Of a stretch of DNA of 62,876 bases, positions 663 to 62,703 are shown piece by piece. The translations under genes and the position numbers were made by a program. Source of the DNA: a virus (taxonomy: Duplodnaviria > Caudoviricetes); IMG/VR virus record IMGVR_UViG_3300048694_000377, positions 1-62,876 of that record, one strand, 5' to 3'. A model generated the notes under the pieces. It searched no databases and had not been told where the DNA came from. It saw nothing but the letters and a program-made list of their open reading frames with translations. Each line of letters begins with the position of its first letter. Within the stretch, counting starts at the first letter, position 1.

Positions 663-737
663 TCCTTATGCAAAAGTACCCGTACCAATCGTTGCATCGT
701 CTGCTGGGCCAGTCCGGTACAGGTGAAATCCCAGACA
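663..737 (-). ncRNA. Candidate structured 5' leader RNA with three interlocking helices
   Basis: Complementary segments 730-734/704-708, 716-724/678-686 and 692-697/668-673 lie between a promoter and the RBS. Confidence 0.55.
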
Positions 738-741
738 GGCT

Positions 742-771
742 TTAATATATCGGATTTTCATTCGGTGTCAA
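742..771 (-). promoter_or_regulatory. Sigma70-type promoter
   Basis: TTGACA (771-766), 16 nt, TATATT (749-744). Confidence 0.65.
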
Positions 772-61130: not shown

Positions 61131-61391
61131 TCAACAATTCCATGCACGCAAAGATTTATTGATGCGCGAGTCCGGGTCTTTTTTGGCCTTGTCGCCAGTC
61201 AGCTTGGATTTCATCCCTTCCATTCGAGCACAAAAGGACGCACGGCGTCCTTCGTCTTTCTTGGTCTTGGGATGAGGCGCCGGAGGCTTCAGATTCATGC
61301 CTTGCTTCTTGGCAGAGGCTCGGCCTTTGGCGTTCAAGCCGCCCTTCGGGTTCTTTCCTTCGGATCGTTGCCATGCTGGTGACTTAGCCAT
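61131..61391 (-). CDS. Small basic conserved phage protein
   Basis: GGLNAKGRAS...RRASFCARM...LRAWNC. Confidence 0.7.
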   Translation of the reverse strand: MAKSPAWQRSEGKNPKGGLNAKGRASAKKQGMNLKPPAPHPKTKKDEGRRASFCARMEGMKSKLTGDKAKKDPDSRINKSLRAWNC

Positions 61392-62124
61392 TTGCAACTT
61401 TCAATTTTTTGGTGCGCTCATCCTCAAGTAAAGGCATGATCACATCATCAACAAAGTTGCGCTCGAATGCTTCAGTGCCCACATGGGGCAGGTTGATTTC
61501 TACATCAACCCAGACTTTGAACCCTGCTTCAGTTGCGCGATCACAGAAGAGGTAGTCTTCACCAATGTATTTGCCATCTTTGATAGCGAAGTCAAAAACT
61601 GCCGCAACATTTCCATCTCCTTGTCGGTTTTCAACCAGCCACTCGGGATGATCTGCGATCAGATTCTCAATGACATGACGCTTGATCAGCATGAACCCAG
61701 TGCCCACGCGATTGACGCGCAGCAAAGGACCATCAAACACCAACGAATCGGTGTCATCACGGTACAGATCAAGGAAGAAGTTCTTGTCTTTGGCACGACG
61801 TGGGTACATGCCAGCCAAGATGTCTCGACCTTCGCTTTGCGCCAAGATGCGCATCACATCGTCAGGATTGACAATGACATCTGCGTCAATGAAAAGAAGT
61901 TCGTCTGCGTCGGTCTTGAGAAACTCGCTGACCAGAGCGTTGCGGGCCATCGTGATGATCGAGCACCCAGACATGTGGCTCAAGTGCATTGAGACTCCAT
62001 GATCCAAAGCAATCGGCATCAGTCGTGCCAGCGAAAACGCAGTCATGATATTGAGCTTCCCGTCATAAGCCGGGATGCCAATGAAGACTTTGCGTCCGCT
62101 CAGGTCAACTTGTTTATCAGCCAT
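61384..62124 (-). CDS. Glycosyltransferase-like protein (GT-A fold)
   Basis: IGIPAY, ARN, LFIDAD, GTGFMLI, GEDYLFC and HVG motifs. Confidence 0.75.
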   Translation of the reverse strand: MADKQVDLSGRKVFIGIPAYDGKLNIMTAFSLARLMPIALDHGVSMHLSHMSGCSIITMARNALVSEFLKTDADELLFIDADVIVNPDDVMRILAQSEGRDILAGMYPRRAKDKNFFLDLYRDDTDSLVFDGPLLRVNRVGTGFMLIKRHVIENLIADHPEWLVENRQGDGNVAAVFDFAIKDGKYIGEDYLFCDRATEAGFKVWVDVEINLPHVGTEAFERNFVDDVIMPLLEDERTKKLKVANG

Positions 62125-62668
62125 AGAATATCGTGCAAAACGGAATGTTTGTCATCTGGGCATACAGACCATTGGCAATCAAAACGCCTTCACCTGGAAT
62201 CAGAACCTGTTGGGTTGATGTTTGCCCCGCAAAAGTATCAACCGAACTCACCCATTTTTGTGGCGGAGTGTTATTGCCGTTTGCATAGGCGACTACGTAA
62301 TAACATGCAGTTCCACCCGAAACAGTCCCAGAACTTGGGTCTGTGACGGTAAATGTATTAGCATCAACAACAGTAATGGTGTAATTTCCATCGGTTGCCG
62401 CCACATTGCTTGAAGACATGAACCCAATACCAATCGCAGTTCCTGTGCTTAAACCATGACCTGTTTTGGTGACGGTAACTGTATTACCACTGCGGGCATA
62501 TACAGCAGATGTTGGAGTTTGCAGCGAATCAAAAAAGATCAGCGTCCCAGCTTGGCTACCATTGGGTGCGTATGTAAATTGCTTAAAACGAGTACGAGTT
62601 GCCGTACCGTTGAGCAGAAAAAATCCAGTCGCATTGAGGTGCGCGGATAAAACATCAGTTTGCATCAT
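62117..62668 (-). CDS. Virion structural protein
   Basis: 183 aa; MQTDV start and IPGEGVL...IFYG end. Confidence 0.7.
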   Translation of the reverse strand: MMQTDVLSAHLNATGFFLLNGTATRTRFKQFTYAPNGSQAGTLIFFDSLQTPTSAVYARSGNTVTVTKTGHGLSTGTAIGIGFMSSSNVAATDGNYTITVVDANTFTVTDPSSGTVSGGTACYYVVAYANGNNTPPQKWVSSVDTFAGQTSTQQVLIPGEGVLIANGLYAQMTNIPFCTIFYG

Positions 62669-62682
62669 GATTGATTTCCTTT

Positions 62683-62703
62683 AAATAGGGGGCCGAAGCC
62701 CCC
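62683..62703 (-). terminator. Hairpin/terminator after the junction-spanning gene
   Basis: GGGGGC-TTCG-GCCCCC-TATTT. Confidence 0.6.

Follow-up and report, generated by a model that had tools for sequence, protein, structure and literature searches.

A predicted double-pseudoknot mRNA leader preceding a cement-like gene in aquatic phages

The locus and the fold of its leader

The window analyzed here is a complete viral record of 62,876 bp (IMG/VR record IMGVR_UViG_3300048694_000377; Duplodnaviria, Caudoviricetes), with a 127-bp terminal repeat and 50.6% G+C; all coordinates are positions in this record. On its minus strand, a major capsid gene, an HNH endonuclease gene, and a gene for a cement-like protein follow one another. 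Just upstream of the last of these, on the same strand, lies the leader that is the subject of this study, placed between a -10 promoter box and the Shine-Dalgarno (SD) sequence. We model it as a three-way junction of the helices P2, Ha, and Hb, in which the loop of the mini-hairpin Ha pairs with the 5′ end of the transcript (helix Pk1) and the loop of the mini-hairpin Hb pairs with the bases preceding the SD sequence (helix P3). Five helices and two pseudoknots are thereby packed into about 70 nucleotides (nt). Given the comparative evidence below, this structure is almost certainly real. Leaders with the letters of the window copy are called type I, and relatives with other letters types II to V; these types and the leaders that lack the fold were sorted by eye. 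The elements of the window copy are as follows.

771-766, minus strand: -35-like hexamer TTGACA, inside the last codons (..L-L-D-T-E) of the upstream HNH gene
749-744, minus strand: -10 hexamer TATATT, with a 16-nt spacer from the -35 hexamer; promoter scan 11/12 including the -35 hexamer
734-730, minus strand: 5′ strand of Pk1, CUGGG, 2-3 nt from the predicted mRNA 5′ end
729-725, minus strand: linker AUUUC from Pk1 to P2, A/U-rich, 3-8 nt in type I
724-714, minus strand: 5′ strand of P2, with the core ACCUGUACC at 724-716, extending to 11 pairs with 688-678
712-701, minus strand: mini-hairpin Ha, CUG 712-710 with CAG 703-701; its 6-nt loop is G709 plus CCCAG 708-704, the 3′ strand of Pk1
699-690, minus strand: mini-hairpin Hb, CG 699-698 with CG 691-690, set between A700 and A689; the 5′ strand of P3, AUGCAA 697-692, forms its 6-nt loop
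688-678, minus strand: 3′ strand of P2, with the core GGUACGGGU at 686-678, pairing with 724-714
673-668, minus strand: 3′ strand of P3, UUGCAU, one base before the SD sequence
667-663, minus strand: SD sequence AAGGA, with the ATG at 653-651

The sequence-only reading of this stretch had proposed a TTGACA-16-TATATT promoter and three interlocked helices, P1 (our Pk1), P2, and P3, in the order P1-P2-P1'-P3-P2'-P3'. The promoter hexamers stand where they had been placed, and so do the three helices. The order is also correct, so P1/P2 and P2/P3 cross. Comparison with relatives added Ha and Hb to these three, and the full order of strands is Pk1-P2-Ha5'-[Pk1']-Ha3'-Hb5'-[P3]-Hb3'-P2'-P3'. A pairing GUCUG/CAGAC, put forward in the same reading as a competitor of P1, is present in this copy but is not conserved among type-I leaders: in 24 of 122, Ha is CCC/GGG, CCU/AGG, or CCG/CGG, and the CAG of the CAGAC partner differs there. 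We rejected this pairing as a feature of the family.

Folding the single sequence was uninformative, because the program cannot model pseudoknots. The nested minimum free energy of the 91-nt leader was -22.6 kcal/mol with z = 0.00, and 96 of 200 shuffled sequences folded as well. For this copy, P2, Ha, and Hb together amount to -14.5 kcal/mol and the duplexes Pk1 and P3 to -6.7 and -4.6 kcal/mol, respectively, beside -20.7 kcal/mol for the best nested fold, with pseudoknot penalties lying outside the model.

Conservation and covariation of the leader

With the window protein as query, 80 IMG/VR loci were found at 43-75% identity. All loci with enough upstream sequence had the same leader, in 36 distinct sequences, and the 37 leaders obtained when the window is counted all fit one anchored parse. 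A pattern built on the RNA alone returned at least 120 further IMG/VR stretches; it fixed the letters of P1' and P3, so no variation is visible at those strands in that set. A stricter regular expression was passed by 192 of 201 type-I loci, and the nine failures comprised four loci without upstream sequence, three cut by contig ends, and two with an extra A before GGA. The sequence-only reading had mentioned similar leaders in related aquatic phages, and they are indeed present, in these IMG/VR loci as well as in HTVC023P, HTVC027P, and DSL-LC04.

The 122 distinct type-I leaders contain 73 distinct P2 helices. Their Ha stems are CUG/CAG (98), CCC/GGG (20), CCU/AGG (2), and CCG/CGG (2); elsewhere Ha is CAG/CUG in other types and, by eye, AGG/CCU in loci L229 and L233. 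For Hb, CG..CG occurs in 114 leaders and UG..CA in 5, with 2 more in a shifted register and 1 mismatch. The SD sequence is AAGGA in 112 leaders and AGGA in 10, spaced 6-9 nt from the ATG.

The pairing was then assessed in alignments. In a MAFFT alignment of 37 rows, 96.5% of cells are paired, against 32.8-46.6% when the partners are slid, and 12 pairs change on both sides. A larger alignment (A3; 99 sequences, 93 distinct rows) was built with a model of P2 and Ha and was not fitted to Pk1, Hb, or P3. Here 98.1% of cells are paired, against 34.0-46.0% when the partners are slid by 1-3 columns, and the covariation score of 0.385 (0.143 in shuffles) was reached by none of 500 shuffles. The covariation among homologous leaders on which the sequence-only reading had staked its helices is thus found. 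Changes on both sides occur in 13 of 23 pairs of A3, with compensatory changes in 9/9 pairs of P2, 2/3 of Ha, and 1/5 of Pk1. Pk1 is 100% paired in A3 and goes from G-C to A-U in three rows, and P3 is essentially invariant within type I in both alignments. RNAalifold, run blind on the 99 sequences, returned P2, Ha, and Hb without any competing helix; the Hb pair it returned is C-G in 91 sequences and U-A in 8.

By covariance model, the element occurs once in the 62.9-kb genome and once in each of the 99 sources (797 kb in total). As a side observation, the bin 641-720, which covers the leader, had a summed contig depth of 153-297 in four runs of one study, against 0-34 in the adjacent bins. 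These runs are labelled "RNA? (probably DNA)", have word shares of 0.08-0.09, represent contigs of relatives at ≥85% likeness, and are uninformative on expression, be it the ends, the strand, or the level of transcripts; the depth pattern agrees with a leader that is better conserved than the flanking coding sequence.

The capsid protein of the window virus is 72% identical to those of Planktothrix and Synechococcus phages, 63-65% to those of Pelagibacter phages HTVC027P and HTVC023P, 63% to that of DSL-LC04, and 54-55% to those of Roseobacter phages CRP-901 and CRP-902, which links the virus, at the level of protein sequence, to the HTVC023P-type podoviruses. In HTVC023P, the gap between gp40 (capsid) and gp41 reads terminator, TATAAT, CCUAG, UUUUGUAG, CUG-A-CUAGG-CAG, and ACG, and continues with GUAUAG, AGA, CUACAAAA, CUAUAC, and AGGAG. 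The DSL-LC04 leader, upstream of a gene annotated "cement protein," has the helices CUAGG/CCUAG, CUCGUAUC/GAUACGAG, CUG/CAG, C-U..A-G, and UAGUAG/CUACUA. HTVC027P and 023Pt_psg01 carry a layout variant, type IV. On reading the leaders of CRP-902, Pag-Yong1, and Alcaligenes phage QDWS535, no such fold was seen. Protein queries with DSL-LC04 and HTVC023P added 160 IMG/VR loci, yielding 100 distinct leaders.

Of 351 loci, 169 pass a topology parser that fixes only the AC..GA letters framing the P3 loop. They contain 113 distinct cores, in which Pk1 has 7 variants, P3 8, P2 80, and Ha 2. Among the loci that fail are type-I leaders in which Ha is followed by two additional bases, as well as type IV and leaders without the fold. 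Among distinct real sequences the parser accepts 138 of 245, against 2 of 4900 dinucleotide shuffles, 0 of 245 reversed sequences, and 0 of 245 reverse complements. Swap tests were anchored only on Ha and AC-N8-GA, which applies to 144 of the 245 sequences. The P3 loop finds its complement in its own downstream flank in 143 of 144 leaders, against 79 of 9426 swaps between leaders with different loops. Likewise, with Watson-Crick pairs only, the Pk1 strand in the Ha loop finds its partner in its own flank in 144 of 144 leaders, against 149 of 9470 swaps; allowing G-U pairs raises the rate among swaps to 38%, since the pentamers are similar to one another. For type IV (30 distinct leaders with 14 distinct P2 helices), the match is 30/30 against 0/442 swaps for Pk1 and 30/30 against 0/162 for P3. 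Thus, P1 and P3 are backed by full compensatory replacement between types, beyond mere conservation; across types there are six different Pk1 pentamers and ten different P3 loop hexamers. The swap tests take the place of a cross-type count by columns, because the model-based alignment (A4) is out of register for the 5′ strand of Pk1 and the 3′ strand of P3. With filters off, the type-I covariance model reaches the divergent types weakly, at 15-36 bits in 33 of 53 loci.

Helix lengths are fixed, and the letters differ between types in every helix; the linkers vary among types in both length and sequence. The only universal unpaired or closing letters across types I to V, by eye and by parser, are an A that precedes Ha and the frame A-C...G-A around the P3 loop. 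From the 3′ strand of P3 to the SD sequence the gap is 1 nt in type I (before AAGGA), 0-1 nt in types III and V, and 3 nt in type II, for an overall range of 0-4 nt. In 29 of 30 type-IV leaders this strand shares its last three letters with AGGAG.

Cement genes with leaders of other designs were also noted; they include a knot-less type "CCCUGACAG...GACAGGAG" and short types. In CRP-902 (L208) and in 18 IMG/VR loci (e.g., L221, L232, and L244), the knot-less design is CC(C)UGACAG, a 7-bp hairpin with covarying stems (e.g., CAGGUGC/GCGCCUG vs CAGUCGC/GCGACUG), CUGAC, and GACAGGAG. Further short knot-less leaders have CCCUAAGAC..AACGAC..AAGGAG in common. These designs may be one or two more leader families of the same gene.

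A -10-like hexamer ends 6-9 nt before the 5′ strand of Pk1 in 121 of the 144 anchored leaders; therefore, Pk1 involves roughly +1 to +8 of the predicted transcript. For the window, the promoter position predicts a start at about 736-737. The promoter match alone is not above chance (2 promoter-like sites found in 4 kb vs 2.6 expected). Among 190 type-I loci, 116 have TTGAC within 45 nt upstream of the 5′ strand of Pk1 and 74 do not.

This placement bears on whether the element could be a self-cleaving ribozyme or a site of RNase processing, at which transcripts reading through from upstream would be cut back to a fixed 5′ end. A small double pseudoknot with few conserved letters has the look of an HDV-like ribozyme (HDV, hepatitis delta virus), and read-through from the capsid gene is conceivable. 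However, a -10 box 6-9 nt upstream in 121/144 leaders leaves almost nothing to cleave, the strand order is unlike that of HDV-like ribozymes in that the Ha loop, and not the stretch after Ha, contains the 3′ strand of Pk1, and no Rfam ribozyme model matches at E<=10. We consider this explanation very improbable.

The predicted transcription unit and its protein

The fold is real and specific to one gene: the comparison shows the pairing, its conservation and selection, its single copy, its exclusive link to that gene, and its place between the -10 box and the SD sequence. Very probably it acts in cis, as the leader of the cement-like gene. The genes and boundaries of the region are as follows.

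2339-1428, minus strand: major capsid gene, upstream; Pfam Phage_capsid_4, PHROG 371
1403-1387, minus strand: terminator-like hairpin after the major capsid gene, marking the end of the upstream unit
about 1342-758, minus strand: HNH endonuclease gene, PHROG 1035 "endonuclease VII," between the capsid terminator and the leader promoter
653-1 and on through the terminal repeat to 62710 (stop 62712-62710), minus strand: cement-like gene, 230 amino acids (aa)
62688-62703, minus strand: hairpin GGGGGC-UUCG-GCCCCC followed by UAUUU, beginning 7 nt past the stop codon of the cement-like gene

The last of these hairpins is probably where a one-gene transcript ends, to judge from its form and position; since it begins 7 nt after the stop codon, the cement-like gene looks like a unit of its own. 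At loci without the HNH gene, a hairpin with a T-run similar to the one behind the capsid gene abuts the -10 box of the leader. An HNH homologue on the same strand was seen at only 38 of the 177 type-I loci having 800 nt of upstream sequence. In the window the HNH gene looks like a mobile insert that brings or preserves the -35 hexamer for the downstream unit.

Just downstream of the cement-like gene lie two open reading frames (ORFs) (61384-62124 and 62117-62668, minus strand). The ORF of 183 aa matches a baseplate wedge PHROG over a short stretch, and the ORF of 246 aa matches PHROG 1574 and glycosyltransferase PHROGs. In type IV (L205, which is HTVC027P, L207, and 30 distinct IMG/VR leaders), the boxes before the 5′ strand of Pk1 are GTATATAA(AAA) or GTATAAAAAA, with no -35 box, and at many type-I loci GTGTATATT stands straight after the T-run of the terminator. 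Such boxes resemble the late promoters of T4-type phages, which have no -35 element, and the leader-bearing phages may use a late-promoter system of their own.

An element directly after the promoter, with a strong hairpin behind the gene and more structural genes beyond it, could act on transcription, as a put-like antiterminator or an attenuator allowing read-through past the post-gene hairpin into the tail genes. The constant juxtaposition with the SD sequence, at 0-4 nt, would be unnecessary for such a role, and the known put RNAs consist of two stem-loops without pseudoknots. P2 followed by CUUUU was also tried as an intrinsic terminator and rejected: its stem is A/U-rich and long-range (about 33 nt enclosed) and the run has only four Us, which makes it a poor terminator. 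A role at the level of transcription is therefore quite improbable.

Wherever an ORF of at least 30 aa lies downstream of a type-I leader, it encodes a homologue of the window protein (190/190, 36-100% identity), and this includes the loci found by RNA alone. Full-length homologues have 222-243 aa, and four have 324-335 aa. In sequence searches of Pfam, PHROGs, and PDB (best E 0.25 in PDB), the window protein had no match, and a tblastn search of 50,697 phage records with its 230-aa sequence returned none either. AlphaFold2, with 57 aligned relatives, gave an all-beta model with a mean predicted local distance difference test score (pLDDT) of 89.3 and a predicted template-modeling (TM) score of 0.86. 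A PDB fold search with this model returned nothing at E<=0.001; the match of highest probability (0.89) was chain H of the cyanophage Pam1 capsid, with E 0.017 and TM scores of 0.30/0.43. BFVD returned only uncharacterized proteins of uncultured phages. By hhalign, the protein is linked to the DSL-LC04 "cement protein" with a probability of 90% (E 1.7e-6); this alignment spans 71 columns and contains an insertion of about 50 aa. The link to HTVC023P gp41 is confined to the first 17 residues. In every relative inspected, the gene comes after the capsid gene. On annotation, position, and a weak fold match, we take the product to be a probable cement or decoration protein of the capsid. The Pfam, PHROG, PDB fold, and BFVD searches brought up no nucleic-acid-binding family for it.

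The exclusive link to this gene also bears on the proposal of a riboswitch, in which the knot would bind a small molecule or ion as an aptamer and the ligand would stabilize P3 and alter access to the SD sequence. A compact pseudoknot of about 70 nt beside the SD sequence resembles the class of pseudoknot riboswitches, the junction As and the A-C..G-A frame are universal, and the element is a conserved structure in a 5′ untranslated region, as aptamers are. However, few unpaired positions are conserved across types, with no universal set that could form a pocket; RNAalifold gave no conserved alternative helix; and the leader is tied exclusively to a structural gene (190/190), none being for the synthesis, use, or transport of a ligand. 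Furthermore, the associated protein was found on one contig only in 185,579 species genomes, in a search made by protein and not by RNA. Over the whole window, no Rfam 15 family matches at its gathering score, so the suggestion of the sequence-only reading that the motif might already be in Rfam did not hold. At E<=10 on 600-820, the only hits were 6A (15.1 bits against a threshold of 41.2) and mir-144 (12.5 against 60), and hence no riboswitch model. At E<=1 on the marine and freshwater relatives L204, L205, L206, L212, and L272, only sub-threshold matches to the flanks appeared, two of which run a few bases into the leader. Because universal unpaired letters are few, RNAalifold returned no conserved alternative helix, and the gene is structural, a metabolite riboswitch is unlikely, and the "riboswitch-like" label given earlier to the leader fits poorly.

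That single match in the species genomes, L202 (DAIQAR010000022.1, 17 kb), was binned with a metagenome-assembled genome of Candidatus Nanopelagicaceae. The HNH gene, a type-I leader of the standard form, and the protein are all present on it. It could be a hint to the host (acI Actinobacteria) or a misbinned phage contig.

Leader and protein do not always travel together. The combinations were counted at the 236 loci where the ORF is complete. Type I precedes the window-like proteins (n=75, 230-335 aa); 71 pass the regular expression, and the other four include register-shifted type I. The gp41-like proteins (n=80, 172-179 aa) have leaders of type III (27) or type IV (53). Among the DSL-LC04-like proteins (n=79, 150-156 aa), the leaders are of type II (18), V (7), III (6), and IV (6), and 42 have no fold. 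Leader types III and IV thus each occur with two protein subfamilies, which can be aligned over about 17 N-terminal residues only; this reassortment weakens the case for autogenous recognition by the variable body of the protein.

Within those residues, a motif M-A-x-(S/T)-T-F-x-G-P (653-627 in the window) is common to all three protein subfamilies. It is kept in proteins that are otherwise unalignable, such as the window protein and HTVC023P gp41, and behind non-knot leaders. The motif may be a capsid-anchoring arm, or its first codons may belong to a signal of the initiation region.

These observations meet in the question of a protein-responsive translational operator, in which the bound knot would block or trap the ribosome at the SD sequence and so match cement output to capsid assembly, in the manner of S15 on rpsO or of T4 gene 32. 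The binder might be cement protein that is not yet assembled, a different late protein, or a factor of the ribosome or the host. Such an operator would suit a P3 strand that abuts the SD sequence in all types and overlaps it in 29/30 type-IV leaders, pseudoknot letters that are strongly kept within each type while P2 varies, and the shared N-terminal motif; rpsO (PMC3985624) and gp32 (PMC10690425) offer precedents. It is set against the pairing of types III and IV with two subfamilies each, the 42 of 79 DSL-LC04-like genes that keep the N-terminal motif family and lack the fold, and an all-beta sandwich model without a detected nucleic-acid-binding family. Moreover, the letters of every helix differ between types, so a common binder would have to read shape. 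The sequence-only reading had inferred a translational operator for a head-cluster protein; the promoter-proximal, doubly pseudoknotted leader ending at the ribosome-binding site of a head-cluster gene is borne out, and the protein-binding part, weakened by the reassortment and by the relatives without the fold, is the main rival of our preferred interpretation, though we hold it to be rather doubtful.

A proposed shape-based leader and its known counterparts

Our preferred interpretation is that the leader is a shape-based, 5′-terminal element that shields the mRNA end and sets ribosome access, and we give it a probability of roughly 0.4. The promoter at 771-744 would produce an mRNA whose first ~70 nt fold into the P2/Ha/Hb junction, with the Ha loop pairing the extreme 5′ end as Pk1 and the Hb loop pairing the bases directly before the SD sequence as P3. 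Pk1 would bury the 5′-terminal nucleotides and may thereby protect the transcript from 5′-end-dependent decay, while the rigid stack of P3 and Hb at or over the SD sequence may fix how the ribosome meets the start site. The function would reside in the shape and not in the letters, the leader being a built-in stabilizer that also sets translation, with no metabolite sensing. Fixed helix lengths beside changing letters, and the occurrence of types III and IV with two protein subfamilies each, speak for this. The one-gene unit behind it would encode a cement-like protein needed in high copy late in infection.

Several points weigh against this interpretation. The transcript start is a prediction, and the -35 box is absent in 74 of 190 type-I loci. 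In known cases a plain 5′ hairpin suffices for protection of the 5′ end, so protection alone leaves an elaborate, length-constrained knot unexplained. Because P3 shares letters with the SD sequence in 29/30 type-IV leaders, a permanent fold should hinder initiation there, and a regulated operator fits better. The fold is not indispensable, as 42 of 79 DSL-LC04-like genes do without it. Finally, near-invariant Pk1, Ha, Hb, and P3 beside a freely drifting P2 in type I could reflect sequence-specific recognition by a partner.

A bolder form of the shape-based interpretation would make the leader a mechanical phage RNA "knot," a counterpart of the exoribonuclease-resistant RNAs (xrRNAs), that locks the 5′ end against 5′-end-dependent RNases and possibly docks on the platform of the 30S subunit, capturing ribosomes for a high-copy capsid protein. 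This is a speculative proposal, and we think it improbable as it stands.

The leader is a new RNA family of a known general kind, absent from Rfam and possibly listed without a name in the 2023 IMG/VR catalogue. In that catalogue, Fremin, Bhatt and Kyrpides 2023 report 8,495 structured-RNA candidates from IMG/VR, including a class lying at most 25 nt upstream of phage genes (PMC10690425). Our leader comes from the same database and belongs to the same class; no such motif is named in the part of the article available to us, whose cis-regulatory table covers genes with known protein domains only, and the window protein has no known domain. No description of the motif was found in the literature, with the candidate lists of PMC10690425 lying outside the search.

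The fold is specific to one late structural gene and is widespread in freshwater and marine HTVC023P-type podoviruses, in hundreds of phages. This type includes cultured SAR11 phages, and among the known SAR11 phage groups the HTVC023P group is the most abundant. Few studies have dealt with structured leaders on the structural genes of phages, and the many natural variants of one topology suit structure-function work. Cultured systems that carry the fold are HTVC023P and HTVC027P on Pelagibacter HTCC1062, and DSL-LC04; an RNA-seq time course of HTVC027P on this host has been published (PMC12753301).

Among known systems, the rpsO mRNA of E. coli is reported to adopt a pseudoknot and a double-hairpin form, of which S15 binds the pseudoknot only (PMC3985624). 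Like rpsO, the phage leader has a pseudoknot at the SD sequence in a 5′ leader with two hairpin-forming segments, and the rpsO fold can sit on the ribosome. In contrast to rpsO, it has five helices with two loop-tail pseudoknots within a closing helix, no conserved double-hairpin alternative was found for it, and its gene encodes a structural protein. T4 gene 32 is the phage precedent; as described in PMC10690425, the leader of its mRNA begins with a pseudoknot by which translation of the gene itself is controlled. The two leaders are alike in being phage mRNAs with a pseudoknot at the leader start, and they differ in that gp32 binds nucleic acid, whereas here the gene encodes a beta-sandwich protein without such a signature. 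In gene 32 an unstructured tract separates the pseudoknot from the SD sequence, whereas in our leader the fold itself reaches the SD sequence.

The preQ1-II/III and SAM-II/V riboswitches are small pseudoknots with the 3′ strand at or in the SD sequence. They have many universal pocket nucleotides and precede metabolic or transport genes; unlike them, the phage leader has few universal unpaired letters, a structural gene, and no Rfam match. The methylophage riboswitch in the literature was set aside, being the glutamine riboswitch of a myophage and unrelated. HDV-like ribozymes have the strand order P1-P2-P3-L3-P3'-P1'-P4-P4'-P2' and cleave 5′ of P1. Like them, the leader nests two pseudoknots, has a short-looped helix of 3 bp, and conserves few letters; it departs from them in holding the 3′ strand of Pk1 within the Ha loop and in matching no model.

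The known xrRNAs come from eukaryotic RNA viruses, and the text of a paper on them contains no mention of phages. Among the Rfam models for xrRNAs, none matches the leader at E<=10. In flavivirus xrRNAs the 5′ end pairs with junction nucleotides, whereas the 5′ end of the leader pairs with a hairpin loop, and the likeness rests on predicted topology. In that topology, the leader resembles the xrRNAs in having a compact three-way junction of about 70 nt, a 5′ end held by a pseudoknot, a hairpin loop paired to the 3′ tail, and a fold kept as topology over sequence. A protein or a ligand bound to the leader would make it a new operator or riboswitch class. If instead it is a nuclease-resistant or ribosome-docking knot, a mechanism of eukaryotic RNA viruses would be extended to phages.

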